Below the pieces are notes generated by a model. The model was not told the origin of the DNA. It saw only the letters and a program-made list of their open reading frames with translations, and made no database searches. A DNA stretch of 40,571 nucleotides from a virus, in IMG/VR virus record IMGVR_UViG_3300045988_122265, positions 1-40,571 of that record; one strand, written 5' to 3'. This document shows positions 2,532-40,571 of this stretch, in pieces. The first letter of the stretch is position 1. Every line of letters starts with the position of its first letter. The translations under genes were made by a program, and so were the position numbers.

Positions 2532-2811
2532 GGACGCGCCGAGCATCCTGCAAGATGAAAAGGAGTGTTTTCTGAGCGGGACATTAGAAGGGCTTGAACG
2601 CCACCATATCTACGGCGGAGCCAACCGCCGCAACAGCGCGAAATACGGCCTATGGGTATGGTTACGGCATGACCTACACAATGAGCCGCCTGACGGGGTG
2701 CATTTTAACATCGACAACAACCGCTTGTTACAGCGGATAGGGCAAAGAGCGTTCGCGCTTAGATACCCCGACGAGGATTTTGTAGAGATATTTGGGAGGA
2801 ATTACCTGTGA
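2515..2811 (+). CDS. Ref-like (RecA-dependent) / HNH-like nuclease domain protein
   Basis: C..G...LERHHIYGGANRRNS.KYGLWVWL.HDLHN...GVH pattern. GGGAGGG RBS. Overlaps the NinB-like ORF in another frame. Confidence 0.45.
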   Translation: MARRYKDAPSILQDEKECFLSGTLEGLERHHIYGGANRRNSAKYGLWVWLRHDLHNEPPDGVHFNIDNNRLLQRIGQRAFALRYPDEDFVEIFGRNYL

Positions 2812-6748: not shown

Positions 6749-6981
6749 ATTTATATTTTTGCACGGACGATTTGTGGGGTATAGAGCTATATGTTGCAGC
6801 GGAATCACGGGGCAAGGCGAAGAGCATGTACTGCGATTATTGTGGCTCTTTGCTGGATTTTATCACGGTACACACATATATAATGTGCCGCGATTTCAAA
6901 GCCCCTGCGGGCGTGTATGATGAAAACTGCGAAGCTTTGGAAACCGCAGGTGCGCGGTATTGTGACGAAACGGAGGAATGA
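6745..6981 (+). CDS. Hypothetical Cys-containing small protein, paralog A2
   Basis: ATG at 6745 has the same AAGGAGG..AAGGCATG context as 6245. ATGA overlap with the upstream stop. Confidence 0.7.
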   Translation: MNLYFCTDDLWGIELYVAAESRGKAKSMYCDYCGSLLDFITVHTYIMCRDFKAPAGVYDENCEALETAGARYCDETEE

Positions 6982-28258: not shown

Positions 28259-29505
28259 CCTACAACATCACCCTAACCGCCAACCACCAATCTTTGACCG
28301 CCGAATATCTCCCCCTTGCCGCTGAATCCGTGCAGTACCTTACCGCAAAGGTGATATGCGAGACGGAGGACTGGACAGGGCGCGAGATTAAAGCAATGTT
28401 TGGGCAGGGCTGCACGGTACACGAGATATCCGTGACAGGCGGGGAGATAACCGCTAAGCAGCAGCTTAACCTTACAGCGGGCGACTGGCGCGTATGGCTT
28501 GTGGGCAACTCCGCACGGGACGGCGAAGTGATACCGCGTATCACCACAAACGTTGCGCATATCAGCGTAGCCCCGACAGGCGGCACGGAGGGCAAACCCT
28601 TCCCCATAATCCCACCCACGGTGGAGGAGCAACTGCGGGCAGACATGGGCAATCTTGCCGACCTGTCCACCGAGGACAAAAGCAGCCTTGTGGCGGCGAT
28701 AAATGAAGCGGCTGAAAGCGGCGGCAGCAAAGATGCCGTGACTTACACCCCGCAAACCCTGACGGAAGAACAGAAGTCACAGGCCAGAACGAATATAGGG
28801 GCTGAAAAAGCGGGAACGGGGTACACTAAGCCCGCATCCGGCATACCCAAAACCGACCTTGCGTACGATGTGCAGACAAGCCTTGCCGAGGCCGATACGG
28901 CTATATCCCTCGGCCTGACCGCCGCCACCCCCGGCCAGATAATCAAGGTAAAGACCGTGCAGGACGGCAAGCCAACAGAGTGGGAAGCGGTGGATATGCC
29001 GAGCGGGGACAAATGGGAAAAAATAAAAGAAATCACCATAGCCGAAGGTGCCGAAGAATCTAATGCCTTGACTATAAACGCCGATGAGAATGGGAACACA
29101 TTTAGGCTTAAAAAGGCGCGATTATGCGCCAAATTCCCCGCATACACGGGTGCAAGCAACATACCGAACTTTTCATTTGCCATGCTCAATGGGAAAACGA
29201 CGGGGCGAGTACACACGCTAATCTATACCGGCTTATGGCCTAAAATATCAACAAATCTCATAACCGGCGCCGTATACTATGTTGATGTATCTGGTACGCA
29301 ACAAATCGAGCATGCGCAGTGCAACGGCAACGTCGGCTGGTCTGACGATACATCTCACGATTATAGGACATATGGGAGCAATAATGATCAACTTAAAACT
29401 ATTTATGGTGATACGTTATGGGCTAAGCCAATCACATCTATAGGCGGGACAGGTATGCTGATATATCCTGGGTGTCATTTTGTACTATATGGGGTGAGAG
29501 AATGA
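28255..29505 (+). CDS. Receptor-binding / tail fibre protein
   Basis: TPQTLTEEQKSQARTNIGA motif is common in phage fibre proteins. The C-terminal third is visibly more A/T-rich. Confidence 0.65.
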   Translation: MTYNITLTANHQSLTAEYLPLAAESVQYLTAKVICETEDWTGREIKAMFGQGCTVHEISVTGGEITAKQQLNLTAGDWRVWLVGNSARDGEVIPRITTNVAHISVAPTGGTEGKPFPIIPPTVEEQLRADMGNLADLSTEDKSSLVAAINEAAESGGSKDAVTYTPQTLTEEQKSQARTNIGAEKAGTGYTKPASGIPKTDLAYDVQTSLAEADTAISLGLTAATPGQIIKVKTVQDGKPTEWEAVDMPSGDKWEKIKEITIAEGAEESNALTINADENGNTFRLKKARLCAKFPAYTGASNIPNFSFAMLNGKTTGRVHTLIYTGLWPKISTNLITGAVYYVDVSGTQQIEHAQCNGNVGWSDDTSHDYRTYGSNNDQLKTIYGDTLWAKPITSIGGTGMLIYPGCHFVLYGVRE

Positions 29506-29666
29506 AAATTTGTGAAAACGGCATAATCCGCGACATGACTGCGGAAGAAATAGCGGAGCTTGAGCAGCTTGCGGCAGAACAGCCCACTCCCGAGCCCACA
29601 CCAGAAGAAAGAATAGCAGTGCTTGAAGAAGCGTTAAATATGCTATTATCGGGGGTGACTGAATGA
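29502..29666 (+). CDS. Small hypothetical protein (XkdX-position)
   Basis: ATGA overlap with the fibre gene. 54 aa, acidic. Confidence 0.5.
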   Translation: MKICENGIIRDMTAEEIAELEQLAAEQPTPEPTPEERIAVLEEALNMLLSGVTE

Positions 29667-29860
29667 CGGACGAGCTGCGCAATAAAATCCTTGCGTACAA
29701 CCGCAGGATAAAGGCCGACCGCGCGGAGCGGGACGAGCTGCAAGCCAAGCTTGACCGTATCGGCGAGGCAGTAGATGGCATGACGGGGCTGCCGAGCGTA
29801 TCAAAGCTTGCGGCCTTTTTAGAGACCATCAAAGAGATTATAAAGCCAAAGGAGGGCTAA
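29663..29860 (+). CDS. Small coiled-coil hypothetical protein
   Basis: ATGA overlap with the upstream gene. 65 aa. Confidence 0.5.
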   Translation: MTDELRNKILAYNRRIKADRAERDELQAKLDRIGEAVDGMTGLPSVSKLAAFLETIKEIIKPKEG

Positions 29861-29863
29861 AAT

Positions 29864-30601
29864 ATGAAAAAATATCTTGCAATGCTGCTTGCTGTTGTGC
29901 TGCTGTGCATATGCACGGGCGCACTGGCTATGGGCTGGGGACGCGCCGATAATCCGCCCCCGACTTACACCGTGACCGTCACAAAGCTGGACAAGGTGGC
30001 GACCACCAGCGGCGCGGCCTATACCCCTGCATCGGGCAAGGCTGCTACAGTCGGCACAGTGGTGTACTTTACGGCAAAATTTGTGGATGCCGAAGGCAAT
30101 CCCGTGCAGGGCACTATCAATCTTACGGATATGGACGTGCTGTATCTTGATGGCGATGTAGTCGCCGCGATAGTCACAGGCGCATACCCCGCCGTGCGGG
30201 CGGTATACAAGTATACCACTCCATTGGCGGAGCTGACCTATGACGGCAAGCCCGTGACCATAAGCGGGGATACCGTGACCATAGGCAGCCTGACCTTCAC
30301 CCGCCGCAATGGCGTGGCGGTAGATGTGTCCATAGCGGGCGGCCTTGCCGATTTGACCAGCGAGTTGAACGCGCTGAGTATGACGCTTGCCGACATCTAC
30401 GCGGGCAAGATATACATGGACGATGCCGCGCTTGTGGCGAACCTCGGTCAAAATGTACGGGCTGAGGGTGCGGCAAAGTGGTATGACGAAAAACCCGCCG
30501 TGCCTGACCTTCCGCAGACAGGCTCCGCGCCCATGTATATAGGCTACATAATGATTCTTGCCGCGCTTGGCGTGGGGGTGCGTGTATGGGCGAAAAGGTG
30601 A
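29864..30601 (+). CDS. LPXTG cell-wall-anchored surface protein (sortase substrate)
   Basis: Signal peptide MKKYLAMLLAVVLLCICTGALA. LPQTG at 30509-30523, followed by a hydrophobic stretch and the RVWAKR tail. Confidence 0.8.
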   Translation: MKKYLAMLLAVVLLCICTGALAMGWGRADNPPPTYTVTVTKLDKVATTSGAAYTPASGKAATVGTVVYFTAKFVDAEGNPVQGTINLTDMDVLYLDGDVVAAIVTGAYPAVRAVYKYTTPLAELTYDGKPVTISGDTVTIGSLTFTRRNGVAVDVSIAGGLADLTSELNALSMTLADIYAGKIYMDDAALVANLGQNVRAEGAAKWYDEKPAVPDLPQTGSAPMYIGYIMILAALGVGVRVWAKR

Positions 30602-31263
30602 AGGAATTTTTGGCTTACCTTGAAAGCCACATCGGGGACGCTTACGTCTGGGGCGCACAGGGCGAAAGGGTAGACAACCGCGCCGACCTTGAAAAATGGG
30701 TACGGCGCAAGGAAACCTCCCGAGCAAATGCCGAACGCGCCCTTGCATACATCAAAAAAGCCACCAAAACGCCGCTGTATGCCTTTGATTGCAGCGGCCT
30801 TATCATTCATTGGCTGCGTGACATAAAAGGGCTGATTGACGGTGATACAAGTGCCGCAGGGCTGTACAGACAATGCACCCAAAAGGGCAAGCTGGGCGCG
30901 TGGAGGATGGATCCCGGCGACCTTGTATTTAGGTACAGCTTCGCCAAGGGCAAAATGGGACATGTAGGCGTATACGTCGGCAACGGCATGGTGATAGAGG
31001 CTAAAGGCCGCGATTACGGCGTGGTAAATCTTCACTTGTGCCTCGGCGGCTGGACGCACCAGGGCAAACACCCCGCGCTGGCTGAGGATACCGCCCCAAC
31101 CGTTTTCAGGCTGACCTCGCCCATGATGCGCGGCGAAAATGTGAAGCTTATGCAGACCGCATTCAACGCCTGTGGCTACGATTGCGGCAAGGCCGATGGA
31201 ATATGCGGCAAGGCCACAATGACGGCTGTAAAAGCCTTTGCAACAGCCCATACGGAGGTGTAG
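30586..31263 (+). CDS. Endolysin: NlpC/P60 (C40) peptidase plus a PG_binding_1 domain
   Basis: Catalytic FDCSGLI and GHVGVYVG. C-terminus GENVKLMQTAFNACGYDCGKADGICGKATMTAVKAF. Confidence 0.8.
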   Translation: MGEKVKEFLAYLESHIGDAYVWGAQGERVDNRADLEKWVRRKETSRANAERALAYIKKATKTPLYAFDCSGLIIHWLRDIKGLIDGDTSAAGLYRQCTQKGKLGAWRMDPGDLVFRYSFAKGKMGHVGVYVGNGMVIEAKGRDYGVVNLHLCLGGWTHQGKHPALAEDTAPTVFRLTSPMMRGENVKLMQTAFNACGYDCGKADGICGKATMTAVKAFATAHTEV

Positions 31264-31266
31264 CCC

Positions 31267-31581
31267 GTGGAATGGTGGGGATGGTGTGCATCAATACTGG
31301 GGGCTATCGTGCTTATCGCGCAAGGCATAAAGGCGATAAGGGAAATCATAGCCCCCGCATTATCTATGCGGGAGAAGCTTGACAAGGTGCTTGAGCATGA
31401 TTCAAACGATTTGAAGCGGTTTGACGAAATTAACACAAAATTTGCGCAACAGGAAGTCACAAATCAGGCTATTATAACCGGCCTTGCGGCCATTATAAAT
31501 CACGAGATAGACGGAAACGGAATTGACGGGCTGAAAAATGCCCGTGCAGAACTTTTACAGCACATAATTGAAAGGAGATAA
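31267..31581 (+). CDS. N-terminally membrane-anchored coiled-coil protein (lysis accessory or holin-like)
   Basis: GTG start after GGAGG. TM WWGWCASILGAIVLIAQGI. Lies between the endolysin and the holin. Confidence 0.5.
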   Translation: MEWWGWCASILGAIVLIAQGIKAIREIIAPALSMREKLDKVLEHDSNDLKRFDEINTKFAQQEVTNQAIITGLAAIINHEIDGNGIDGLKNARAELLQHIIERR

Positions 31582-31583
31582 AC

Positions 31584-31862
31584 ATGACGAACGAATTTTT
31601 TACTTGGGCGGTGCTTTTGACTTACGCGGGGGCGACCCTCGCTACCAGCCTTATCACACAGCTTATAAAGGGTGTGGGCTTCATCGACAAAATACCCACG
31701 CGCCTGACCAGCTATGTAATCGCGCTTGTGGTGCTTATTGCCGCCACCTTTTTCACCGGCGGCCTGACCCTTGAGGCGGGTGCGCTATGCGTGATAAATG
31801 CCGTGGTTGTGTCCCTTGCCGCGAATGGCGCGTATGATGCCATAGCCCGCGACAGGAAGTAA
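31584..31862 (+). CDS. Holin (multi-TM, 92 aa)
   Basis: Three hydrophobic segments and a charged C-terminus (ARDRK). AGGAG RBS. Confidence 0.65.
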   Translation: MTNEFFTWAVLLTYAGATLATSLITQLIKGVGFIDKIPTRLTSYVIALVVLIAATFFTGGLTLEAGALCVINAVVVSLAANGAYDAIARDRK

Positions 31863-31927
31863 GATTGCCGCCGCCCCTCTGCGACAAAAATTGCCGGAGG
31901 TGAAAGGCCGATGAGAAGCCGGCCTGT

Positions 31928-32167
31928 GTGGTGGACAAAAATATTTTGCAGACCCTCTCCCGCGCGGAGTGGGAATGGATTATCTATCAGCGGATTTTCT
32001 GCGAGCGCGACCGCTGGCTTGTGGCGCGGCATCTGCTGGACGGTGTGCCGTATGACAGGCTTACAGCGGAGTATCAGGCGCGGTACACCGATGCGCCGCT
32101 GGAGTATGACCAAATTCGCCGCCGATACAAGGCGGCGGAAAGAACCCTTATAAAATATGCCCCCTGA
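31928..32167 (+). CDS. Small sigma-70 region-4-like HTH protein
   Basis: ERDRWLVARHLLDGVPYDRLTAEY...IRRRYKAAERTLIKY. GTG start with a weak RBS. The competing frame 31911..32153 has a better RBS but an Arg-rich, low-complexity product. Confidence 0.45.
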   Translation: MVDKNILQTLSRAEWEWIIYQRIFCERDRWLVARHLLDGVPYDRLTAEYQARYTDAPLEYDQIRRRYKAAERTLIKYAP

Positions 32168-32186
32168 TGGGGGCTTTTTTATTTTT
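32159..32186 (+). terminator. Intrinsic terminator
   Basis: GCCCCC-tgat-GGGGGC followed by TTTTTTATTTTT. Confidence 0.7.
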
Positions 32187-32193
32187 GGGGGGC

Positions 32194-32222
32194 TTGACAT
32201 ATGCCTGATGCTGAGGTATTTT
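32194..32222 (+). promoter_or_regulatory. Promoter of the repeat-spacer-repeat RNA (TTGACA-17 nt-TATTTT)
   Basis: TTGACA at 32194-32199 and TATTTT at 32217-32222. The predicted start falls at about 32229, the first base of repeat 1. Confidence 0.55.
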
Positions 32223-32228
32223 AATAAT

Positions 32229-32319
32229 GTCATCCGGCAACGGATGTGGATTGAAACATTTGATTTTTAGTTTTTGCGTCCGGGACGCATGTCACCCGCT
32301 TGCGGGTGTGGATTGAAAC
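32229..32319 (+). CRISPR. Mini-CRISPR unit: two 29-nt type I-C-like repeats (32229-32257, 32291-32319) flanking one 33-nt spacer (32258-32290); no cas genes in the window
   Basis: R1 is GTCATCCGGCAACGGATGTGGATTGAAAC and R2 is GTCACCCGCTTGCGGGTGTGGATTGAAAC. Both end in TGGATTGAAAC, the type I-C repeat 3' part (recalled). Both form a 6-bp stem plus tetraloop, with one compensatory base-pair change. Confidence 0.7.
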
Positions 32320-32352
32320 ATTATTTATCTTTGGTGGGGTTTCAAGCCTAAG

Positions 32353-32382
32353 AAAAAAGATGCGCCGCCGTGCATCTTTTTT
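32353..32382. terminator. Bidirectional intrinsic terminator (ends the mini-array RNA and the convergent minus-strand operon)
   Basis: AAAAAAGATGC-gccgccgt-GCATCTTTTTT. Confidence 0.7.
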
Positions 32383-32393
32383 CCTTTCTCCAG

Positions 32394-32663
32394 CTATTTC
32401 ACCCAACCCCAAAGATTTATCCAGCTTTTGGGACAGATTATCCGGTACATATAGGGCGGATTCCTCCAGTTTAGCCAGTCGAATATCCAGGCATCGCCCC
32501 ATTCGTCATCGTCCGCCAGTGCATCCAGCTCCGGTATCCGCTCGTCCGATACGCAGTACACCCCGTAGCCCTCGTCCGTGATGTAGTGGCGTAAAAATTC
32601 CATGTGGTACTTTTCGGCTAAGGCCATCAGCGTGGCCTTGGTTCTTGGCATTCTCGCTTCCAT
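32394..32663 (-). CDS. Small acidic, Trp-rich hypothetical protein (89 aa)
   Basis: AAAGGAGAG RBS before ATG (MEARMPRTK...). The product contains DALADDDEWGDAWIFDW. Confidence 0.6.
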   Translation of the reverse strand: MEARMPRTKATLMALAEKYHMEFLRHYITDEGYGVYCVSDERIPELDALADDDEWGDAWIFDWLNWRNPPYMYRIICPKSWINLWGWVK

Positions 32664-32709
32664 TTTTCTCTCCTTTGGGGCGGCATTGCCGCCCCTTGCC
32701 CTCTGCATC

Positions 32710-32997
32710 TTAGCGGTTCAGCGTTTCGGCGGCGTGCTTGGCTACTGCCGCATCGTAGGCGGATTCGCAGTCCTCATAGCTGTCAAAGTCTATATCCAGC
32801 TCATAGCACAGCGCCTCGACAAGATTCGGCTCCCACTCAGCATCGTCGTCTATGGCCGCTATAAGCTCATCTGCCGTAGCCGCGCGGACTTCGCTGCGGG
32901 GGGGGGAGTCTTTTCCCGCTACCCGCCACATGGGGATAAAATCTTCGCCATACTGCTCATAAGTCTCGGTGCCTTCAATCGCTTTGTAAACCTTCAT
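32710..32997 (-). CDS. Small, strongly acidic hypothetical protein (95 aa; about 24 D/E versus about 7 K/R)
   Basis: GAAGGGAG RBS. First gene downstream of consensus promoter copy A. Confidence 0.65.
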   Translation of the reverse strand: MKVYKAIEGTETYEQYGEDFIPMWRVAGKDSPPRSEVRAATADELIAAIDDDAEWEPNLVEALCYELDIDFDSYEDCESAYDAAVAKHAAETLNR

Positions 32998-33093
32998 TTT
33001 TAACTCCCTTCGGGCTTGTCGCCCTTGCTTTATCGTGGCTTTATTATACCATAGGTATATACCTACGTCAAGGGTTTTTTGCAGATTTTTTGA
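32997..33093 (-). repeat. About 97-bp promoter/operator/leader repeat, copy A
   Basis: Near-identical to 34343-34440: tttttaactcccttcggg...cttgctttatcgtggctttattataccataggtatatacctacgtcaagg..tttttgcagattttttga. Confidence 0.9.
33043..33071 (-). promoter_or_regulatory. Consensus promoter A (TTGACG-17 nt-TATAAT, extended TGg) with a 14-bp perfect palindrome TAGGTATATACCTA in the spacer
   Basis: On the minus strand the -35 is at 33066-33071, the palindrome at 33052-33065 and the -10 at 33043-33048. Confidence 0.7.
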
Positions 33094-33257
33094 TTTTTTA
33101 TGTCGGCGCGTATCAGGCCCTTGATATATCCTTGCGTGCTGGGCACATCGGCAAGACGGGCGAGGATGTCGCCATCTGTGCCGATGTTAAGCTTAAGGTA
33201 TATGCCCTTGGTGCTTTTTTTGTCGTAGCGGGCTTGTCGCTCAAATTCTTTTTTCAT
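33063..33257 (-). CDS. Ribbon-helix-helix (Arc/CopG-like) DNA-binding protein, 64 aa
   Basis: MKKEFERQARYDKKSTKGIYLKLNIGTDGDILARLADVPSTQGYIKGLIRADI has a beta-strand plus two helices pattern. Its 3' end overlaps promoter A. Confidence 0.55.
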   Translation of the reverse strand: MKKEFERQARYDKKSTKGIYLKLNIGTDGDILARLADVPSTQGYIKGLIRADIKNQKICKKPLT

Positions 33258-33900
33258 TTTTTTCCATCCACTCCATAAGCTTGCTGTACGATGGCCAGGG
33301 CTCCCACTCTGCTTCCATGTCCCTGATAGCCTCGGCATAGTCCTCGCTGCGCAAAATCTTTTCCATCGCCCTGCGTCCTGCGGCGCATTTATCTATATCG
33401 ACACCCCGCGTAAATTCTTCTGCAGTAAAAAATGCAGCTGCTCGGGGATATTTAGATTCTATCTCTGCCATTTTTACGGTAGGCTCTTTCGGCTTTTCAC
33501 ACTCGCAATGGTCTACAAATTGCCAATGCCTGATTGCGGCCTTGTAGTCGTCCCATGCTTCCCCTGCCGCACGCACCTCGTTCATGCCCTCTATAGCCGC
33601 GCTTGATACCTTCAGCGCGGCTATTTCGGCTTTTTCCCGTAGCAAATCCTTATGTACATTGACTACTATGGTATCGGTCTCGCTGTCATAGCTATCGGGC
33701 TTGGCTCTGCATGACCAGTAATCGGCGTCGCGCTCTGCGCAGCTCATGCGCACCGGTACAAAATCTCCGCTTGCGCACATCCTACCCCAGCAATCGGGGC
33801 AGAATGTGCGGCCTATCAAGTCGCGCATGTGGTCGCGGTCGTCCATCGTGCAATCCACTGTAGTGGTATGCCCACAGGCATATTCCATTTCGTATTTCAT
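33241..33900 (-). CDS. Hypothetical protein with an N-terminal CGH...CPxC zinc ribbon (219 aa)
   Basis: AAAAGGAGAA RBS. MKYEMEYACGHTTTVDC....FCPDCW is paralogous to the N-terminus of the upstream gene. Confidence 0.65.
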   Translation of the reverse strand: MKYEMEYACGHTTTVDCTMDDRDHMRDLIGRTFCPDCWGRMCASGDFVPVRMSCAERDADYWSCRAKPDSYDSETDTIVVNVHKDLLREKAEIAALKVSSAAIEGMNEVRAAGEAWDDYKAAIRHWQFVDHCECEKPKEPTVKMAEIESKYPRAAAFFTAEEFTRGVDIDKCAAGRRAMEKILRSEDYAEAIRDMEAEWEPWPSYSKLMEWMEKNEKRI

Positions 33901-33919
33901 GGCGTTCTCCTTTTCTTTT

Positions 33920-34339
33920 TTATTTTGTTGCATTATAAGTGTTGATTACCTCGCGGCCCCACTCGCCGCGCAATGACCTGTCACGATTATCTATCCAAAA
34001 TTTTGCCGTGGTATAGGTCTGTATAATCCATGCGATGCAGCGCATTCCGTTTTCGTTGGCGCCAACGGCCATTATTTCATCTATCTTTTCCTTGCGGATT
34101 GCGTTTGCCCATGCGACCTGCTTCGGGGTTCCGCTCAGTTCGGGCCACTGTTTTTCCTTGCTTTCCTGCGCCGCCTGTGCGTCAATCGCCTCGCGTTCTG
34201 CCTGCTTGCGGGCCTTGTAGCATTCGGGGCATTCGCCGTGCGTCTCATACCAGCTGATTTTGCGCTCGCGCTCTTTACCAGGCCCAAACAGCTCCACAGT
34301 TGCGGTGTGACCGCAAGAAAATGTTACATCGTACTTCAT
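33920..34339 (-). CDS. Hypothetical protein with an N-terminal CGH...CPxC zinc ribbon (139 aa)
   Basis: MKYDVTFSCGHTATVELFGPGKERERKISWYETHGECPECY. GAAGGGAG RBS. First gene downstream of promoter copy B. Confidence 0.65.
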   Translation of the reverse strand: MKYDVTFSCGHTATVELFGPGKERERKISWYETHGECPECYKARKQAEREAIDAQAAQESKEKQWPELSGTPKQVAWANAIRKEKIDEIMAVGANENGMRCIAWIIQTYTTAKFWIDNRDRSLRGEWGREVINTYNATK

Positions 34340-34342
34340 AAT

Positions 34343-34440
34343 TTTTAACTCCCTTCGGGGCTTTGGCCCCTTGCTTTATCGTGGCTTTATTATACCATAG
34401 GTATATACCTACGTCAAGGGGTTTTTGCAGATTTTTTGAA
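34343..34440 (-). repeat. About 97-bp promoter/operator/leader repeat, copy B
   Basis: See copy A. The differences are confined to the leader hairpin and one G/T run. Confidence 0.9.
34389..34417 (-). promoter_or_regulatory. Consensus promoter B, with the same TTGACG / TAGGTATATACCTA / TATAAT as promoter A
   Basis: The -35 is at 34412-34417, the palindrome at 34398-34411 and the -10 at 34389-34394. Confidence 0.7.
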
Positions 34441-34478
34441 AAAATATTTTTGCCCGCTAAATGCCCGCTAAATTCCCT

Positions 34479-34509
34479 CCCCGCGCCCTGAGCGCGGGGC
34501 ATATTTTTT
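34479..34509 (+). terminator. GC-only 8-bp hairpin plus T6 upstream of the cargo cluster (insulator, terminator or attenuator)
   Basis: CCCCGCGC-cctga-GCGCGGGG, then cata, then TTTTTT. Confidence 0.45.
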
Positions 34510-34540
34510 GCGAAAATTAAGGCGTAAGGAGGCGAAAAAA

Positions 34541-34969
34541 ATGTGGAATCCTAACCCCTTTTTTGGCGGCTATCAGCAGCCCCAGCAGTACCAGCAGCGC
34601 ACCGAGATTGCCCAAGTCAATGGTGAGGGCGGGGCGAAGGCATATAGCCTTGCGCCCAATAGCAGCATCCTGTTGCTGGATACCACCGCGCCCATAGTCT
34701 GGCACAAGTGTACCGATAGCGCGGGGTATCCTACATTAACCCCGTACACTATCACGCCGTATCAGCCTGCGCCGCCTGTGGACATTAACGACCTCGCGGC
34801 ACGAATATCAAAATTGGAGGATAAATTAAATGAATCCCATATTGCAAGCAATGAAAGCTGGAAGCCAGCAGACCCCGCAAATATCTCCGCAGCTAATCGC
34901 CCAGGCCAAAAGCATGATGGGGATGCCCGCGCAAATGCAGCAGGTAATGCGGATGCTCGGCGGGCGTGA
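34541..34969 (+). CDS. Q/P-rich hypothetical protein (cargo gene 1); the 3' 140 nt overlap the next ORF and may not be coding
   Basis: AAGGAGG RBS. MWNPNPFFGGYQQPQQYQQ...ILLLDTTAPIVWHKCTDSAGYPTLTPY. The tail past residue 97 is low-complexity. Confidence 0.55.
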   Translation: MWNPNPFFGGYQQPQQYQQRTEIAQVNGEGGAKAYSLAPNSSILLLDTTAPIVWHKCTDSAGYPTLTPYTITPYQPAPPVDINDLAARISKLEDKLNESHIASNESWKPADPANISAANRPGQKHDGDARANAAGNADARRA

Positions 34970-35045
34970 CCCCCAGCAGATGTTTTACAGCCTGTGCCAG
35001 CAAAAAGGCATAGACCCTGAAAGCATCTTGTCCCAGATACGATAA
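34830..35045 (+). CDS. Q/M-rich small hypothetical protein (cargo gene 2)
   Basis: TGGAGGA RBS lies 8-10 nt before the ATG. 71 aa. Confidence 0.55.
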   Translation: MNPILQAMKAGSQQTPQISPQLIAQAKSMMGMPAQMQQVMRMLGGRDPQQMFYSLCQQKGIDPESILSQIR

Positions 35046-35095
35046 ATCACGCGCGATTTATATAAAAAAAATAAAATTTTGAAGGAGAAAAGACA

Positions 35096-35722
35096 ATGGA
35101 TAATGTACCCTCTGTGGCGGATATAGCCGCCGTGACAGACAAAAATGACGGCTTTGGCGGCAGCATGGGCGGAGGATTCTGGATATTCGCCCTTATCGTC
35201 CTTTTGGCTATGATGGGCGGAGGCTTTGGCGGCTGGGGCAATCGCGGCAACGGTGACTACGGTCAGTATGCGACCGCAGCCACGCAGCAGGAAATCCTTT
35301 TTGGCCAGCATTTTGGCCAGCTTAACGACCGCCTGACCAACATCGGTAACGGCATATGTAGCTTGGGCTACGATATGCAGGGCAATATCGGCCAGCTGGG
35401 CAAAGAAATGGCCATCGCGCAGAATGCCACGAATATGACCGTTATGCAGTCCGCAAACAGCATACAGTCCCAGATGGCGGAGTACTGCTGCGCCGTGCAG
35501 CGCGGCATGGATGCCATCAACGCCAATATCGACGCAAAATTCGCGGCTCTTGAAAAGGCACAGCTTGAGCAGCGCATAGCCCAGCTTGAGCAGGCCAATA
35601 ACCAGCTCTTTGTGCGCGAGCAGCTGACGGGCGTGGTACGCTACCCCAACGGCTACACTTACAACGCCGGAAATAGCCCGTTTTGCGGCTCCGGCTGCGG
35701 CTGCGGCAATAGCTGCTGCTAA
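35096..35722 (+). CDS. Gly-rich single-TM protein with an N/Q-rich coiled-coil and a Cys-rich C-terminus (cargo gene 3)
   Basis: GGSMGGGFWIFALIVLLAMMGGGFGGWG, a long helical region, and ...FCGSGCGCGNSCC at the C-terminus. AAGGAGAAAAG RBS. Confidence 0.65.
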   Translation: MDNVPSVADIAAVTDKNDGFGGSMGGGFWIFALIVLLAMMGGGFGGWGNRGNGDYGQYATAATQQEILFGQHFGQLNDRLTNIGNGICSLGYDMQGNIGQLGKEMAIAQNATNMTVMQSANSIQSQMAEYCCAVQRGMDAINANIDAKFAALEKAQLEQRIAQLEQANNQLFVREQLTGVVRYPNGYTYNAGNSPFCGSGCGCGNSCC

Positions 35723-35798
35723 GACATGACACACCATCCGGCATTGCCGTGACTATCGGGGCGGCTTGACCGCCCCTTGATTATGAAAGGAGAAAATT

Positions 35799-36209
35799 AT
35801 GGCTTGTAAGAATATATGCCAGCTTTGCCCCCACCTGATTATATCCCAGTCCGTGACATTTGTGGCGGGTACTGGGCTTATCATCAATCTGCCCGCAGGA
35901 GTATACGCCAACGGCGAGAAGTATTGCATCGTCGTGGCGCAGAGCATACCGGATACCACCACCATATCCGCGCCCGTATATATCACCATCGGCACAGGCA
36001 CGGCGCAGTATCCCCTGATAAATCGCTGCTGCGCACAGGTGACCGCGTGCAGCATGCGCAAGCGCACCAAGTACAGCACCGTAGTATCCACCACCCCTAC
36101 GGGCGGGACGTTTAAGCTGCTCGGCAACCCACCTTGCGCACCGAATAACGACTTGACGGGTCTGACTGGCGGAGCCGTCGCCACCGTGGCGGAGGCGACA
36201 AAGAAATGA
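35799..36209 (+). CDS. Cys-containing beta-rich hypothetical protein (cargo gene 4)
   Basis: MACKNICQLCPH...RCCAQVTAC. AAGGAGAAAA RBS. Confidence 0.6.
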   Translation: MACKNICQLCPHLIISQSVTFVAGTGLIINLPAGVYANGEKYCIVVAQSIPDTTTISAPVYITIGTGTAQYPLINRCCAQVTACSMRKRTKYSTVVSTTPTGGTFKLLGNPPCAPNNDLTGLTGGAVATVAEATKK

Positions 36210-36514
36210 AGCTAATTAACGATTTGTCCGACCAGATTTGCGAAGAAATCGCGGACGCTGAAAAGTATGCTAAGTGGGCGCTTACGGTCAAGGACGATAT
36301 GCCAACCGTAGCGCAGACCCTGTACACCATATCGGGGCAGGAGCTGACCCACGCATCCATGCTGCACGACCTTGTAGCCCGCGCCATATCGGACTACAAG
36401 GCCAAGCATGGCGACCCGCCCGCCGATATGCTGACACTGTATAACTATTTACACGGCAAGCAGATAGACAAGACGGAACGTGTAAAAAGGTATCAGGAGA
36501 TGTATAAGGCGTAA
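36206..36514 (+). CDS. Helical ferritin-like (ExxH-containing) small protein (cargo gene 5)
   Basis: EEIADAEKYAKWA ... GQELTHASMLHDL. ATGA overlap with gene 4. Confidence 0.55.
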   Translation: MKLINDLSDQICEEIADAEKYAKWALTVKDDMPTVAQTLYTISGQELTHASMLHDLVARAISDYKAKHGDPPADMLTLYNYLHGKQIDKTERVKRYQEMYKA

Positions 36515-36521
36515 TCGGGTG

Positions 36522-36541
36522 TTTCACTTAAAATTTCACTT
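36522..36541 (+). repeat. Two direct TTTCACTT repeats (36522-36529, 36534-36541); candidate integrase arm-type sites, left arm of attP
   Basis: Read directly. The same octamer pair recurs at 36721-36740. Confidence 0.6.
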
Positions 36542-36578
36542 TTACGCTAAAAAACTTAGAGAATTAGCCACTTCAAAA

Positions 36579-36605
36579 GGGGTTCGATTCCCACCCGCTC
36601 CGCCA
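36579..36605 (+). other. attP core: 3' fragment of a tRNA gene (T-loop, T-stem 3' strand, acceptor 3' strand, CCA)
   Basis: GGGGTTCGATTCCCACCCGCTCCGCCA. No matching 5' acceptor strand (GGAGCGG) or cloverleaf lies upstream. Confidence 0.7.
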
Positions 36606-36612
36606 GAAAAAA

Positions 36613-36635
36613 AGCCCTGAATATCAGGGCTTTTT
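36613..36635 (+). terminator. Intrinsic terminator directly after the tRNA fragment
   Basis: AGCCCTGA-ata-TCAGGGCT followed by TTTT. Confidence 0.7.
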
Positions 36636-36720
36636 GCTTGTTTTGGGCTTATTGTTGCCGAAAAATGTTGCACCAAAAAAGCAAGATATTTCGGCATTTT
36701 TGAAAGAAGCCGCAAAGCCA

Positions 36721-36740
36721 TTTCACTTTTTATTTCACTT
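36721..36740 (+). repeat. Two direct TTTCACTT repeats (36721-36728, 36733-36740); candidate arm-type sites, right arm of attP
   Basis: Same orientation and 12-bp periodicity as the left pair. Confidence 0.6.
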
Positions 36741-37766
36741 TTTTGGGGTAAAATTTTTTGTAACATCGTCAAAATAGCTGTCTATAAGCGCATCAACGTT
36801 TTTGCGCTCCCGGCTGAACGTTTCCTGATACACGCGCTTCATCGTGGTGTCTGTTTTCCAGCCGCCCCGCTCCATTGCATACTTGTCGGGGACGTTAAGT
36901 TGAAGCATTACAGATGCGTTTACATGGCGTAGGTCGTGGAATGTGATATCAACATCGGCTTTTGCACAGAGCCGCCTAAACCGCCCACGGATTGATTCTC
37001 CGGACGCGGTAATAATATATCCGTCCCCATCCTGCCACGCGGGCGTGTCCTCTATCAGGCGCATTATATACGGCGGCACGGCAAGGGCGCGGTTGCGGTC
37101 GTATTCCTTCCCCGCCGCCTTTGCTAACGGCATACCGCGCACATCAACGACAACCTGATTTATAGTCATAATGCCGTTGTTTATATCACAAACCCGAATA
37201 CCGCGAACTTCCGACATGGTAAAGGATAGCCACATGGCAAGCATACACGGCAGTTCTATGTCCGTCCCGCGTATGATGCTGTAAATCTCCTGCGGCTCGG
37301 GCAGCGTCCGTATGCGCTTACGCTTTGCGGGTATAGTGGGCGAAAAATGCAAGTCATATTGCGCCATAGCAGCAGAAAAAAGGCCGCGCACGTTTGCCAT
37401 TGTTTTTGGGGTAGGTGTAGTGCCTTGCCGCGTTATCCGCTTTGATTCCGCGTTAAATGCGCTCTGGACAACAAGCTCATTCAAGCTTGACAGCGGCACA
37501 TCCATAAGCGATTGTAAGTAATTGCGCCTTATTTTTTCATATCCCTCGATTGTTGTTGGGGATAGAACGCCGTCTTTTGATGTTATATAAGCGTCTATGG
37601 CCTTACCGACCGTCACACGGCCTACCTCGCGCTTGTGCTGCATTTGCATTTCGAGTGCCGCGTACTCCGCTTCGCGCTTAGTATCACGTGTTATGCTATG
37701 CGTTTTGCCGTCATAGTAGACCTGCACGCGCCATTTGCCAGATGCCGTTTTTTTTGCAGTTGCCAT
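36735..37766 (-). CDS. int: Tyrosine integrase
   Basis: N-terminal SAM-like KWRVQVYYDGK. Catalytic region ...FHDLRH...GGWKTDTTMKRVY. Adjacent to the attP-like tRNA fragment. Confidence 0.9.
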   Translation of the reverse strand: MATAKKTASGKWRVQVYYDGKTHSITRDTKREAEYAALEMQMQHKREVGRVTVGKAIDAYITSKDGVLSPTTIEGYEKIRRNYLQSLMDVPLSSLNELVVQSAFNAESKRITRQGTTPTPKTMANVRGLFSAAMAQYDLHFSPTIPAKRKRIRTLPEPQEIYSIIRGTDIELPCMLAMWLSFTMSEVRGIRVCDINNGIMTINQVVVDVRGMPLAKAAGKEYDRNRALAVPPYIMRLIEDTPAWQDGDGYIITASGESIRGRFRRLCAKADVDITFHDLRHVNASVMLQLNVPDKYAMERGGWKTDTTMKRVYQETFSRERKNVDALIDSYFDDVTKNFTPKK

Positions 37767-37838
37767 TTCATTGCCCCCTTTGTGATTTTATGCTATAATA
37801 GGGGCGAGAGATCCTCATTTCTCGCTCCCTTTCCTTCG

Positions 37839-37869
37839 TTCCGCACGGCGGCAACCGTGCGGAATTTTT
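37839..37869 (+). terminator. 10-bp hairpin plus T-run that is functional only in plus-strand orientation (between int and the XRE-TM gene)
   Basis: TTCCGCACGG-cggcaa-CCGTGCGGAA followed by TTTTT. Confidence 0.45.
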
Positions 37870-38299
37870 ATGGCCGCCTAAGCCATCCCACGGTGGGGTT
37901 AAGCGCATCGTATAAAAAACCCCCTATCAATATGCTGGTTACGCTTACGCTGTATATCACCGCCCACCGGAGCCATTTACTAAGCTGCTGTATGCGCCTA
38001 TCCTTTTCCGCAAGCAGCAGCTTGACGGCGGTGGTATACCTCTGTGTAGGCTCTTCGGCCTGCGGCACGGCTCCGTAAATCTCGTTCACAAATTCATGCA
38101 TTGTCGCGCCTAAGCCTTGGGTAACAAGTATTTCATATGTCGCCATGGGCGTTCCGGTTGTGCCTTGCAGCGTGCGGGTAAGTGTGGAGGCGGCTATGCC
38201 GCTGCGCTTTGACACGTCCTGCAAGGAGATCCCTCGCTTTTCACGCATTCGCGTAAACGCATCTGCGTATTTCCGATTATTGTCCTCAAAAATGCCCAT
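37868..38299 (-). CDS. XRE-family HTH protein with a C-terminal transmembrane segment
   Basis: HTH RGISLQDVSKRSGIAASTLTR. TM WAVIYSVSVTSILIGGFLY. GGGGGAGAGAA RBS before ATG 38299. Confidence 0.7.
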   Translation of the reverse strand: MGIFEDNNRKYADAFTRMREKRGISLQDVSKRSGIAASTLTRTLQGTTGTPMATYEILVTQGLGATMHEFVNEIYGAVPQAEEPTQRYTTAVKLLLAEKDRRIQQLSKWLRWAVIYSVSVTSILIGGFLYDALNPTVGWLRRP

Positions 38300-38550
38300 T
38301 TCTCTCCCCCTTTTCCATTTTTCCATTTTTGGAAGCGCTAATTCCGTTTCTGGCGCGCTTTTCCATTTTTGGCCATATCCATTTTGCTATGTGTGTAGTA
38401 ATCTGTACTTGCGCATAGGGGCGCACCCGGGGGCGGCGCATCCTTACCTTGCTTCTCCGTCGCCCCCTCCACCCACCATATATTATATGATGTATGGTGT
38501 CTGTGATATGGTATCATATCTTAACATTTTTTTGCACGGAGGATAAGACA

Positions 38551-38697
38551 ATGACGCACACAGAATTTTCCCATACCGTTGACCGCTTGGACGAAGAAGG
38601 CGTTAGCCTTCTCCGCTGTTACGCTGAGCTGCTAAAAATTTCGCATATGACGCAAGCGCAGCTCGCCCATCTTCATCGAGACAATCGTACAGATTAA
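38551..38697 (+). CDS. Small ORF (48 aa) convergent with and overlapping the repressor 3' end
   Basis: GGAGGA RBS lies 7 nt upstream. TGgTATCAT extended -10 at 38509-38517. Contains LDEEGVSLLRCYAELL, similar to the repressor C-terminal motif. Confidence 0.35.
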   Translation: MTHTEFSHTVDRLDEEGVSLLRCYAELLKISHMTQAQLAHLHRDNRTD

Positions 38698-38932
38698 GTA
38701 TCTCTGCTTTTTCGGCTTCCATCTGCGAGGGCGCTACATCTGTCAAATCGTCCAGCTTACATCCCAGCGCCCGCGCAATCGCTTTCATTGTCTCGAGGTT
38801 CGGATTTGTAGTAGCGCCGCTGCTGATTTTGCGCAGCGTGCTAAGCGGCACACCCGACGCAGCGGCAAGTTGCTCTAAGTCCATTCCAAGTGCTTTGCGC
38901 AGCTCGGCCATCCGCCTAAATTTTGTCGGCAT
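38603..38932 (-). CDS. cI-like phage repressor (XRE HTH, 109 aa)
   Basis: LGMDLEQLAAASGVPLSTLRKISSG.TNP.LETMKAIARALGCKLDDL. Divergent from the cro-like gene. Confidence 0.8.
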   Translation of the reverse strand: MPTKFRRMAELRKALGMDLEQLAAASGVPLSTLRKISSGATTNPNLETMKAIARALGCKLDDLTDVAPSQMEAEKAEILNLYDCLDEDGRAALASYAKFLAAQRNSGEG

Positions 38933-38963
38933 TTCATCACTCCCATTTGCTTTATCTACTGAT

Positions 38964-38992
38964 ATTATACACCACATCTTATTCCGAATCAA
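38964..38992 (-). promoter_or_regulatory. Repressor promoter (TTGATT-17 nt-TATAAT)
   Basis: On the minus strand the -35 is at 38987-38992 and the -10 at 38964-38969. Confidence 0.6.
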
Positions 38993-39036
38993 GAATAAAA
39001 GTTCCATGCACGGAACATAAAATTGAAAAAAAGTTA

Positions 39037-39065
39037 TTGACAAGTGCCTATGATGGTATTATAAT
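39037..39065 (+). promoter_or_regulatory. Early lytic promoter (TTGACA-17 nt-TATAAT)
   Basis: Perfect consensus hexamers at 39037-39042 and 39060-39065. The spacer contains ATGATGGTATT, which is repeated at 39082-39092. Confidence 0.7.
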
Positions 39066-39117
39066 GGCAGCATAAAGACCAATGATGGTATTTGACAAGA
39101 CCAAAGGAGGTATATAG

Positions 39118-39333
39118 ATGTACAGCTATCTTAAGGGCAAAATCGTCGAAAGGGGTATGAGACAAACTATCATCGCTGATGCGCTGGGCATATCCCCCAA
39201 ATCCCTGGGCTTGAAGCTTGCGGGTAAGCGCGATTTCAAATGGGACGAAGTATGCCTGATACAGAGCCGCTTTTTCCCGGACATTGACAAGGACACGCTT
39301 TTTATGGCAGCCGAAGAACGCAAAGGGGCTTAA
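39118..39333 (+). CDS. Cro-like / XRE-type small HTH regulator
   Basis: MRQTIIADALGISPKSLGLKLAGKRDF. AAGGAGG RBS. First gene of the rightward early operon. Confidence 0.7.
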   Translation: MYSYLKGKIVERGMRQTIIADALGISPKSLGLKLAGKRDFKWDEVCLIQSRFFPDIDKDTLFMAAEERKGA

Positions 39334-39360
39334 TAATCTACAAGGAGGAGGAAAGAGGAA

Positions 39361-39732
39361 ATGAGAAAGTGTGAAAATTGCGGGGCGAACCTTGACAGTG
39401 GTGAGCGCTGCGACTGCGAGCGCGAGAGCGACAGAGAGAAGCTTGACAGGGCGTGCTGGATGATAGCGGATGCCATATCCACCATGCGCGCGGCTGACGG
39501 GCTGCTGAGGGAGTGCGGGATTGAACTCTGCGGGGCCCTCGACTATGACTACGATATCACGGACATAACGTATGGGCGGCACATCCAGTTCTTATCGGGC
39601 AGAAAAGCCTTTGAGCGCATCACCGGGGAGAAGTGGGAGGAAGTGCCGTTGAGCGAGAAGTTTAAGCGGGCATCGACCATATACCGTGGGCTGAAAGTCA
39701 TAGAGCTGATAGAGGAGGCCGAGAAGCAATGA
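39361..39732 (+). CDS. Hypothetical protein with an N-terminal zinc ribbon (CENCG...CDC)
   Basis: AGGAGGAGG RBS. Confidence 0.6.
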   Translation: MRKCENCGANLDSGERCDCERESDREKLDRACWMIADAISTMRAADGLLRECGIELCGALDYDYDITDITYGRHIQFLSGRKAFERITGEKWEEVPLSEKFKRASTIYRGLKVIELIEEAEKQ

Positions 39733-39944
39733 GGAAGATTTCGACAAAGGACTACATATATTCAAGGCTCCAACTATACGGCATAAGCCGTGCGGAGCTG
39801 GCGGCAGCCCTGTATGTAAGCCCCCGCACACTTGCGAGCCGCATGGCCAACACCGACACGCTTACATTGCGCGAGCTGCGTATTATCGCTAAGAAACTGC
39901 ATTGCAGCATAGCTGACCTTGCGGGGGAGGGCACATGCGCATGA
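39729..39944 (+). CDS. Small HTH DNA-binding protein (possible excisionase or regulator)
   Basis: ISRAELAAALYVSPRTLASRM......LRELRIIAKKLHCSIADL. ATGA overlap with the upstream gene. Confidence 0.6.
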   Translation: MRKISTKDYIYSRLQLYGISRAELAAALYVSPRTLASRMANTDTLTLRELRIIAKKLHCSIADLAGEGTCA

Positions 39945-39995
39945 AGAGTCTGACGAGGAATAGAATATAATTTTTTAGGAAAGAGGAGTAAATCA

Positions 39996-40427
39996 ATGAA
40001 AGAAAAACTTAACATGGGCATTGAAATCGACAAAGAACTAATTGAAAGTAATGTAAGCAACGCTGTATGCGTTGCCATAGCAAGCGCACTGGGGGATAAA
40101 GATGAGCTAATAGGGAAGGCTGTTAAAGCAGTGATATCATCGTATGTGGATTCAGAAGGCAGGCCGTGCAGCTCGGGCTCCTATCGCGCAATACCATATC
40201 TAAAGTATTTGGCAGAACAGAGCATTAAAGAATCTGTGAAAAGTGAAATAGCTAAAATGGTTGAAGAAAATAAGGAACAGTTTTCACAAGCTATTCGGGC
40301 AGAACTAAACAAGCCGTCTGTCCGGCAACAACTGGCGGCGGCATTCTTAGATGCGGTCATTGGTACGACACAACAAACCTGGAAAATGCCGATAACAGTC
40401 TCTTTTAACCGTCACGAGAACGATTAA
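39996..40427 (+). CDS. Hypothetical protein (143 aa)
   Basis: AAGAGGAG RBS. Visibly A/T-richer than the genome average. Confidence 0.6.
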   Translation: MKEKLNMGIEIDKELIESNVSNAVCVAIASALGDKDELIGKAVKAVISSYVDSEGRPCSSGSYRAIPYLKYLAEQSIKESVKSEIAKMVEENKEQFSQAIRAELNKPSVRQQLAAAFLDAVIGTTQQTWKMPITVSFNRHEND

Positions 40428-40452
40428 ATAAGGTAAGCCTTAGGCGACCGAG

Positions 40453-40571
40453 AGGGCACATGCACATGAAGAAGCTGACAAGGGCTGAATTTATCGCCCG
40501 CGCCGTGGCGGACAGAAGAAAGGACAAGCTGCGCGGGCAAAAAGAAGCGTATTGGGTGCGGTCAGCACACA
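40453..40571. repeat. Direct terminal repeat, copy 2 (identical to 1-119)
   Basis: Same 119-nt string as the window start. Consistent with circular assembly overlap or terminal redundancy. Confidence 0.95.

Follow-up and report, generated by a model that had tools for sequence, protein, structure and literature searches.

Two tandem operator-promoter units and a predicted autorepressor outline a putative acr-aca-like locus in a temperate phage of uncultured Clostridia

Autorepressed anti-defence operons are already known, and their regulators include ribbon-helix-helix (RHH) proteins. In the immI region of phage P22, a small dimeric RHH repressor (Arc/Mnt) shuts the very strong promoter Pant via a symmetric operator within the promoter; the gene for Arc comes first in its operon, and Arc controls a single dedicated antirepressor. 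The RHH protein Aca14 of Pasteurella multocida represses two operons, its own and an adjacent one, and members of its family frequently accompany the anti-CRISPR (Acr) protein AcrIF23 (bioRxiv 10.64898/2026.07.27.740549, July 2026). In clade II pLS20-family plasmids, the RHH repressor Reg_p576 controls establishment genes, and hairpins in the 5′ untranslated regions (5′UTRs) are proposed to stabilize the mRNA (PMC8708921). Here we describe a locus in the IMG/VR virus record IMGVR_UViG_3300045988_122265, whose positions 1 to 40,571 were analyzed as one stretch of 40,571 nt (the window). Two copies of a promoter with a palindrome between its -35 and -10 boxes precede small genes on the minus strand, and the first of these operons ends with a gene for a protein of 64 amino acids (aa), orf64. 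We consider it reasonably probable that this is an autorepressed locus of the kind formed by anti-CRISPR and anti-CRISPR-associated (acr-aca) genes, in which orf64 would act on two promoters and the cargo would counter host defence.

The initial annotation had reported that a segment of about 97 bp occurs twice, and a direct repeat was indeed found at 32997-33093 and 34343-34439, with 88% identity when aligned without gaps and 93% mean column identity in a gapped alignment. On the minus strand, both copies read TTGACG, TAGGTATATACCTA, TGG and TATAAT, followed by a leader of ~45 nt with a short GC stem, the ribosome binding site (RBS) GAAGGGAG and a start codon. In agreement with the promoters proposed earlier, a consensus scan matched each copy at 11 of 12 positions, with 17 nt between the two boxes and a TG that extends the -10 box; only three sites of at least 11/12 are present in 29000-40571, and these two are among them. 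Judged from its boxes, each promoter is a near-consensus sigma-A/sigma-70 type with an extended -10 box. The perfect 14-bp palindrome TAGGTATATACCTA at 33052-33065 and 34398-34411 abuts the -35 box and stops 3 nt short of the -10 box, thus filling the spacer as described. It occurs exactly twice in the window, where the next-best matches carry 3 mismatches, which is chance level. The repeats are best explained as two copies of one portable unit consisting of promoter, operator and 5′UTR. The elements of the two units and the genes behind them are as follows.

34343..34440, minus strand: P_up, upstream copy of the promoter/leader unit (repeat, palindrome and promoter scans, alignment); -35 box TTGACG 34417-34412, operator 34411-34398, TGG, -10 box TATAAT 34394-34389, inferred transcription start site (TSS) near A 34382; leader with stem 34370-34357, RBS GAAGGGAG 34356-34349 and ATG 34339
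34398..34411, unstranded: O_up, predicted operator, perfect palindrome TAGGTATATACCTA; arms TAGGT/ACCTA kept in relatives, central 4 bp free
33920..34339, minus strand: orf139; zinc-ribbon-like N-terminal domain (CGH...CPxC), C-terminal domain with homology to AcrIF23/AcrIE7
33241..33900, minus strand: orf219, with a good RBS; N-terminal zinc-ribbon-like domain paralogous to that of orf139, the rest without match
33063..33257, minus strand: orf64, 64 aa, proposed autorepressor, last gene of the P_up operon
32997..33093, minus strand: P_down, downstream copy of the promoter/leader unit (repeat, palindrome and promoter scans, alignment); -35 box 33071-33066, operator 33065-33052, -10 box 33048-33043, inferred TSS near 33036; leader with stem 33024-33012, RBS 33011-33004 and ATG 32997
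33052..33065, unstranded: O_down, predicted operator, same sequence as O_up; its first 3 bases are the orf64 stop codon
32710..32997, minus strand: orf95, small and very acidic, first gene behind P_down
32394..32663, minus strand: orf89 (MEARMPRTK...), second gene behind P_down, preceded by an 8-bp GC hairpin at 32677-32695 and the RBS AAAGGAGAG

The differences between the two copies had been said to be confined to the leader hairpin. The gapped alignment showed two more, namely a single base exchanged 4 nt ahead of the -35 box and an indel of 3 nt that falls between RBS and ATG. The compensatory change in the hairpin, put forward as a sign of function, turned out to be weak: it amounts to one G:C pair gained or lost, plus loop changes, in a stem of 4-5 bp, and the two stems were not more stable than shuffled sequence (z = -0.7 and -1.1). 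The stems of 11 distinct leaders read GGG(G)(C)/(G)(C)CCC, with three pairs invariant and the fourth varying or breaking. The hairpin had no match in Rfam, and in other contexts of the same promoter the leaders are short and stemless. A conserved RNA element was thus rejected in view of the short stems, their z-scores and the lack of real covariation. The hairpin may stabilize the mRNA by analogy with p576, a function for which the stem data give no evidence.

We searched for the unit using the pattern TTGACN-TAGGTATATACCTA-NNN-TANNNT, which has 22 specified bases and, by our own estimate, is not expected by chance in the collections searched. The initial annotation had suggested looking for the palindrome in related phages, and the promoter-palindrome unit was found in 38 stretches: 33 IMG/VR viral stretches and 5 contigs of metagenome-assembled genomes (MAGs) assigned to uncultured Clostridia, Christensenellales or simply bacterium. 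GenBank phages yielded one partial match, unannotated, in MT835524.1. The 38 stretches fall into ~10 unrelated flank groups, across which the -35 box, the palindrome, TG and the -10 box hold their register although the upstream sequence, the leader and the first gene all differ. In every locus that covers the downstream DNA except two (L012 and L119), the promoter is followed after ~30 to ~1150 nt by a gene for an orf64 homologue in the same orientation. Between promoter and regulator lie 0-4 variable small genes: some loci have no gene there, others encode a recurrent 48-aa protein, and others again have from one to four orphans (46-219 aa). Ten cargo proteins taken from the family's other operons were all orphans in family-library searches, apart from one helix-turn-helix (HTH) protein. 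Three candidate repressors had been named for the palindrome; the orf64 family travels with it, while the cI-like gene and the HTH gene at 31928 do not.

Phages of the window's own group carry two or three copies of the unit. The one that comes after the regulator invariably starts within the regulator 3′ end. The gene directly behind a copy varies by phage, being orf95, a 61-aa protein, orf89 (as in L005) or a 243-aa protein. Because the gene behind the unit differs between phages, the unit appears to mark cargo-exchange junctions as well.

The operator and the regulator were also compared from the side of the protein. A reverse search with an alignment of the small proteins returned at least 354 viral relatives, of which the best 80 loci were examined. 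A palindrome of 13-14 bp lies within the -35/-10 spacer in 28 of these 80. Most of the 28 have TAGGT/ACCTA arms around varying centres (ATAT, ACGC, ACGT, ATGT, GGAA, AGAG or CTCT), and some have TGGGT..ACCCA arms; TGGGTATACACCCA was seen in two loci, twice. Ten loci read TTGACA-TATCTATATAGATA-TGA-TATACT and represent a TATCT..AGATA class. In the proteins of this TATCTATATAGATA class, IALQLN replaces the usual xLKLN/xLRLV (Q for K/R) and KYKK replaces KYDK (K for D). Arms that are conserved around a free centre and that change together with the putative DNA-reading residues form the pattern of a protein operator.

A natural exchange was found at four places carrying a homologue of orf139 (L114-L117), which share one phage backbone unlike that of the window and differ in their far-side flanks. 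These loci keep orf139, an orf219 homologue and the same 5′UTR. In place of the regulator, in contrast, they encode at the same position an unrelated protein of 59 aa with matches to Pfam RHH_1 (E=7e-4) and ParG, and the promoter reads TTGACA-TACTGGGTGCAGTATGC-TAAAAT with the spacer palindrome ATACTG-GGTG-CAGTAT. Of all single observations, this joint exchange of regulator and palindrome on one scaffold argues most strongly that the protein reading the spacer palindrome is encoded by the last small gene. The conservation of the unit with the orf64 family, the co-varying sites and the swap in the sister cassette together suggest that orf64 is very likely the autorepressor of both operons, and we place high confidence in this regulatory part of the explanation.

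Members of the orf64 family share the motif (R/K)YD..NT...LKLN..TD.DIL..L..V..KQGYIK.LIR.DI. A word-indexed homologue search with orf64 alone returned six proteins, and the family was found by profile search, which gave at least 6,400 clusters at E<=1e-5, none of them with a Pfam domain. One NCBI record names a member "Transcriptional regulator, RHH-like, CopG". The gene at 33063-33257 had been labelled RHH in the initial annotation; the open reading frame (ORF) exists, and the label was not confirmed by sequence or fold search. An AlphaFold2 monomer built from an alignment of 84 family sequences reached a predicted local distance difference test (pLDDT) score of 82, with an extended segment at residues 11-28 and helices at 29-37 and 41-58; a shallow alignment had given a poor model (pLDDT 64). 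The better model is compatible with an RHH monomer and can be called RHH-like. Foldseek of this model against BFVD returned uncharacterised family members only. Comparison of the 84-sequence family with Aca14 by hhalign, using the sequence in Table S2 of bioRxiv 10.64898/2026.07.27.740549, aligned 33 columns in register at E=0.013 and a probability of 3%, which is not significant. We thus regard orf64 as probably an RHH protein and do not file it under Aca14. A toxin-antitoxin module with an RHH antitoxin was also considered and ruled out: the proteins are ~57-64 aa without a conserved extension, their variable tail is derived from the promoter, and their partners vary freely.

The first gene behind P_up provided a link to known inhibitors. 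A profile of the orf139 family against PDB matched AcrIF23 (7FIA, E=1.1e-5) and several entries of AcrIE7 (E~2e-3), and orf139 as a single sequence matched AcrIF23 (E=1.8e-4). The motif L.G(S/T).KQ..WA..IR ... AKFWIDNRD is common to the three proteins. The alignment spans the near-invariant L, G, K/R, Q, W, A, I and R of the orf139 family together with its AKFWI(D/E)NR motif, and 7 of 8 near-invariant positions in the C-terminal domain are identical in AcrIF23. The AcrIF23/AcrIE7 core aligns to residues ~58-134 of orf139. By sequence, orf139 is a distant homologue of AcrIF23 and AcrIE7 and is predicted to share the core domain of type I inhibitors acting at the Cas3 step. AcrIF23 binds Cas2/3 and blocks DNA cleavage (PMC9270243), and AcrIE7 binds the single-stranded DNA of the R-loop and keeps Cas3 from cutting (PMC12002350).

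Convergent with the cassette is a short element on the plus strand.

32194..32319, plus strand: promoter-like site and two type I-C-like CRISPR repeats (repeat and promoter scans, Rfam, sequence reading)
32352..32383, unstranded: hairpin between an A-run and a T-run, read from the sequence and not listed by the terminator scan

The promoter-like site TTGACA-17-TATTTT (32194-32222, plus strand, 10/12 consensus positions) stands directly upstream of the repeats at 32229-32257 and 32291-32319. These read GTCATCCGGCAACGGATGTGGATTGAAAC and GTCACCCGCTTGCGGGTGTGGATTGAAAC, form hairpins and both end in GGATTGAAAC; they are not identical, and the differences in their stems are paired changes. We take the pair to resemble type I-C CRISPR repeats. 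Rfam CRISPR-DR9 scored 24.9 bits against them (E=0.015), below the gathering score of 45. The 33-nt "spacer" between the repeats is conserved in relatives, which carry the pair or a single repeat, and a scan of viral contigs for its target found it only inside the same arrays of related phages. The hairpin at 32352-32383 follows the repeats and also ends the minus-strand operon, and can be read as a putative bidirectional terminator for this operon and for the convergent plus-strand repeat transcript. CRISPR-repeat-like small RNAs are known from phages: RNA anti-CRISPRs are encoded by racr genes that cluster with acr genes (PMC10651486), and viral CRISPR RNA (crRNA)-like regulators have been described (bioRxiv 10.1101/2024.10.29.618823). 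The element is read as a candidate RNA anti-CRISPR (Racr) or viral crRNA-like RNA (crlRNA) regulator.

A further I-C-like repeat pair, independent and different in sequence (…GTGTGTGGATTGAAAC, …GGCGAGTGGATTGAAAC), was noticed in L008 at ~1500-1600 with spacers of its own. It lies immediately upstream of the operator-promoter (1399-1371) of an unrelated operon that has a regulator of the same family.

The proposed sequence of events follows acr-aca logic. When the phage DNA enters a cell free of repressor, both promoters would fire strongly. As orf64 protein accumulates, it would bind both operators between the -35 and -10 boxes and exclude RNA polymerase, and at O_down it could possibly also block read-through from P_up. 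Both operons would then fall back to a low, self-limited level and stay low in the lysogen. The cargo is predicted to act against host defence, most likely type I (I-C) CRISPR-Cas. Since orf139 carries the AcrIF23/AcrIE7 core domain and an I-C-like repeat pair adjoins the cassette, counter-defence is the most likely role of the cargo, and we judge it probable. The initial annotation had compared the locus with repressor-occluded acr-aca operons, and comparative evidence supports this view in the conservation of the unit with the orf64 family, the co-variation, the homology of orf139 and the adjoining repeats. Anatomy, conservation, co-occurrence, co-variation and homology are read directly from the DNA; DNA binding, repression and its timing, anti-CRISPR activity and the target subtype are predicted from them.

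Several results weigh against this interpretation. orf64 has no Pfam or NCBIfam match, and the 84 members of its family showed scattered weak matches to pXO2-72, DUF7626 and RHH_7 (one member, E=0.015). Profile searches of PDB returned no match, nor did Foldseek of the pLDDT-82 model against PDB; hhalign of the family with Arc and CopG gave nothing. L012 and L119 have the operator-promoter without an orf64-family member in the DNA examined. In 52 of the 80 family loci, mostly of one high-GC clade, no such promoter was found within 2.5 kb. In this clade, the regulator gene sits within a longer operon, neither a sigma-70-type promoter nor an operator was found, and the recurring GCGCACC-CACA-GGTGCGC lies inside coding sequence. 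On the side of the cargo, the likeness of orf139 to AcrIF23 and AcrIE7 concerns one domain at moderate E-values, and among all loci fetched the AcrIF23-like domain is restricted to this cassette type and absent from the family's other operons. Beyond the orf139-like N-terminus of orf219, neither this protein nor orf95 and orf89 had an informative match in family-library or homologue searches.

The points concerning the cargo bear on an explanation that keeps the autorepression by orf64 and regards the genes as an ordinary prophage accessory ("moron") cassette with steady, self-limited expression in the lysogen, serving superinfection exclusion, defence or lysogenic conversion. Most cargo of the family is orphan, and a family as large as 6,400 clusters has the Acr-like domain in this cassette type only. 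The lysis genes stand on one side of the cassette and the integrase gene on the other, with the cassette on the strand opposite the late genes, and in L115 and L116 it stands at the prophage end adjoining host genes. The homology of orf139 to both AcrIF23 and AcrIE7 argues otherwise, as do the predicted I-C-like repeat RNAs beside the cassette in two independent contexts; moreover, the cargo has no match to defence-system models, and the gene sizes and regulator-last order are those of acr-aca operons. We consider the moron explanation unlikely. Much less probable still is a module like immI, in which orf139 or orf219 would be an antirepressor that inactivates the prophage repressor and is itself kept in check by the small repressor; the locus would then control induction or immunity and not host defence. 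Such a module would be in keeping with a small repressor (probably RHH) acting at a strong promoter of a temperate, integrase-encoding phage, and with zinc-ribbon proteins without known function. Nevertheless, searches of Pfam and PHROGs showed no similarity to Ant-type antirepressors, the regulator gene is the last and not the first, and cargo that varies freely under the same regulator and operator is unfit for a dedicated antirepressor.

The remaining two explanations concern the palindrome itself. It could be bound by another factor, such as the cI-like repressor, the product of the 79-aa ORF at 31928-32167 or a host protein, given that the DNA-binding fold of orf64 was not confirmed by the PDB, hhalign and Foldseek searches and that L012 and L119 have the site without a family member nearby. 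The orf64 family is, however, the only gene that travels with the site across ~10 unrelated contexts, the site changes when the family protein changes, and the window's immunity region has no further copy of it, all of which makes another binding factor very improbable. The two copies are nearly identical and the unit marks cargo-exchange junctions between related phages, as might be seen if the repeats were a recent duplication or recombination scar and the palindrome mere spacer DNA. A scar would hardly keep the arms while the centre varies, hold them in constant register with both promoter boxes across unrelated flanks, or recur as a 22-base pattern that we do not expect by chance, and we give this explanation almost no credence. 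An acr-aca-like locus autorepressed by orf64 is thus the reading that we retain.

The arrangement of the genes fits two short operons: P_up, orf139, orf219 and orf64, tightly packed, and P_down, orf95 and orf89. The 3′ end of orf219 overlaps the start of orf64, which suggests translational coupling. orf64 ends in the P_down repeat, which encodes its last ~10 codons, and its stop codon TAG coincides with the first 3 bases of the downstream palindrome. In close relatives this tail differs by frameshift or substitution, and thus it is probably mere read-through into the inserted promoter. The terminator scan found no terminator-like site between orf64 and P_down, so that transcripts from P_up probably continue into the second operon. 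orf139 and orf219 are similar over residues 1-41 only (BLASTP E=5e-6), and orf139 matches PHROG 16123 (unknown function). Apart from this match, the five cassette proteins had no informative match in Pfam, NCBIfam, PHROGs or PADLOC, and orf219, orf95 and orf89 matched no defence-system model in PADLOC. In related phages, the position of orf95 is filled by other small genes. The window is a temperate phage; its lysis genes are plus-strand genes further to the left, and its integrase gene lies at 36735-37766.

A module of the form CAAGGG(G)-loop-(C)CCC + (G/A)AAGG(G/A)AG precedes orf139, orf95 and orf89 on the minus strand (34349-34372, 33004-33026 and 32665-32697, respectively). The hairpin ahead of orf89 is strong (z = -3.7). 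Gain and loss of cargo in relatives falls exactly at this module, which looks like a recombination junction. At 5540-7290 of L114-L117, the hairpin and RBS of orf89 alone remain past the regulator and are directly followed by a putative terminator hairpin. In L017 (reverse strand, ~2388-3060), the orf219 homologue is seemingly frameshifted and may be a pseudogene or an assembly error.

The two loci with the operator and no family member have features of their own. L012 contains two TAGGTATATACCTA in tandem at ~6751-6800, of which one stands immediately ahead of the -35 box and the other occupies the spacer; the 8 kb examined there contain no regulator-family member, and the first long ORF (195 aa) begins with the strand-like segment LTLKL. 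In L119 (4609-6700), the same operator-promoter is followed first by three tiny ORFs and then by a gene resembling an HNH endonuclease and additional ORFs; in some phages the regulon may extend beyond accessory genes.

Other elements were noticed around the cassette. On the minus strand, P_up is separated from a GC hairpin (34479-34499) by a stretch that includes two tandem 11-mers TTTAGCGGGCA at 34451-34472, partly kept in relatives as TTTAccGGGCATTTAatGGGCA. These could be bound by another factor or be part of the divergent plus-strand gene at 34541. At 34541-36514 on the plus strand is a divergent cluster of odd small proteins: a Q/P-rich one of 142 aa, a Gly-rich one of 208 aa with a Cys-rich tail (...CGSGCGCGNSCC), one of 136 aa and a weakly rubrerythrin-like one of 102 aa, the last of which also accompanies the cassette in L114-L117. 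The sequence …GGGGTTCGATTCCCAC at 36565-36594 (plus strand) resembles the T-arm and 3′ end of a tRNA, while ARAGORN detected no complete tRNA in the window. Since it adjoins the integrase gene, it may be the core of the attachment site.

In gut Clostridia phages, counter-defence genes have hardly been explored, since the known Acr/Aca search anchors come mostly from Proteobacteria. The conserved regulator and its operator-in-promoter signature provide such an anchor for these phages, and orf139, orf219, orf95, orf89 and the adjoining repeat RNA are candidates against type I-C systems. The TAGGT, TATCT and ATACTG arm pairs on one scaffold, with the apparent correlation of Lys/Gln to base, would constitute a small specificity code, and the operator/regulator pairs offer compact orthogonal repressors for Gram-positive hosts. 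More tentatively, and with rather less confidence than in the locus itself, the ~60-aa KYD..NT..LKLN..TD.DIL....KQGYIK.LIR.DI proteins could be a major unrecognised Aca-like family of gut Clostridia and high-GC phages, whose operator-marked promoters flag hundreds of counter-defence genes and whose repeated promoter/5′UTR unit is a handle for cargo exchange. If true, the flagged genes would include protein inhibitors of type I-C acting together with adjacent repeat-mimic RNAs.

Compared with acr-aca operons of the Aca1/Aca2 type, the locus has the same strong promoter with an inverted repeat, variable small genes first and a small regulator last, the same predicted burst followed by shut-off, and one cargo gene homologous to validated Acrs. 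A regulator conserved across operons with differing cargo, as in acr-aca, is seen for the orf64 family in nearly all contexts. The locus departs from that type in its regulator, as orf64 lacks a helix-turn-helix and matches none of the named Aca families; in its predicted operator, a lone 14-bp site that takes up the -35/-10 spacer; in the tandem duplication of the promoter/5′UTR, with the second operon starting inside the regulator 3′ end; and in its host lineage, uncultured Clostridia. orf139 shares L.G..KQ..WA..I(R) and AK.WI(D/E)NR with AcrIF23 (PDB 7FIA) and AcrIE7 (PDB 9N3X, 9L2Q, 9LA6), but has an additional N-terminal zinc-ribbon-like CGH...CPxC domain and low identity to both. AcrIF23 and AcrIE7 target types I-F and I-E, whereas for a protein of a Clostridia phage type I-C would be the likelier target. 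As in Racrs and viral crRNA-like RNAs, the repeats of the window have their own promoter-like site, lie in a phage beside acr-like genes and are solitary or paired in relatives; unlike them, they score below the gathering threshold of CRISPR-DR9, differ from each other and enclose a conserved "spacer" for which no target was found.

P22 immI differs from the locus in that here the regulator comes last, the cargo is variable and similarity to Arc is not detectable. Aca14 is likewise a small non-HTH repressor at the aca position with an inverted repeat in its promoter and two operons under its control, as predicted for orf64, and the in-register alignment of the two runs through the N-terminal Y-(D/N)-x-x-N arm and the strand, at an E-value (0.013) that is not significant. 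In contrast to orf64, Aca14 matches Pfam RHH_1 and comes from Proteobacteria rather than Clostridia phages, and its repeat (TGTATATG..CATATACA) overlaps the -10 box, whereas the site here directly follows the -35 box and leaves 3 nt to the -10 box. With Reg_p576, compared by description only, the locus shares a Gram-positive mobile element, one small RHH autorepressor (for orf64 a predicted one), repeated promoter-operator units, anti-defence genes behind them (early genes such as ardC on the plasmid, predicted ones here) and short 5′UTR hairpins; Reg_p576 belongs to a plasmid and not a phage, and its operators flank the promoters, whereas here the site fills the spacer. What is new here is a different and very large regulator family without a curated model, its operator signature and variants, the tandem reuse of a whole promoter/5′UTR inside the end of the regulator gene, and the setting in uncultured-Clostridia phages beside I-C-like repeats.

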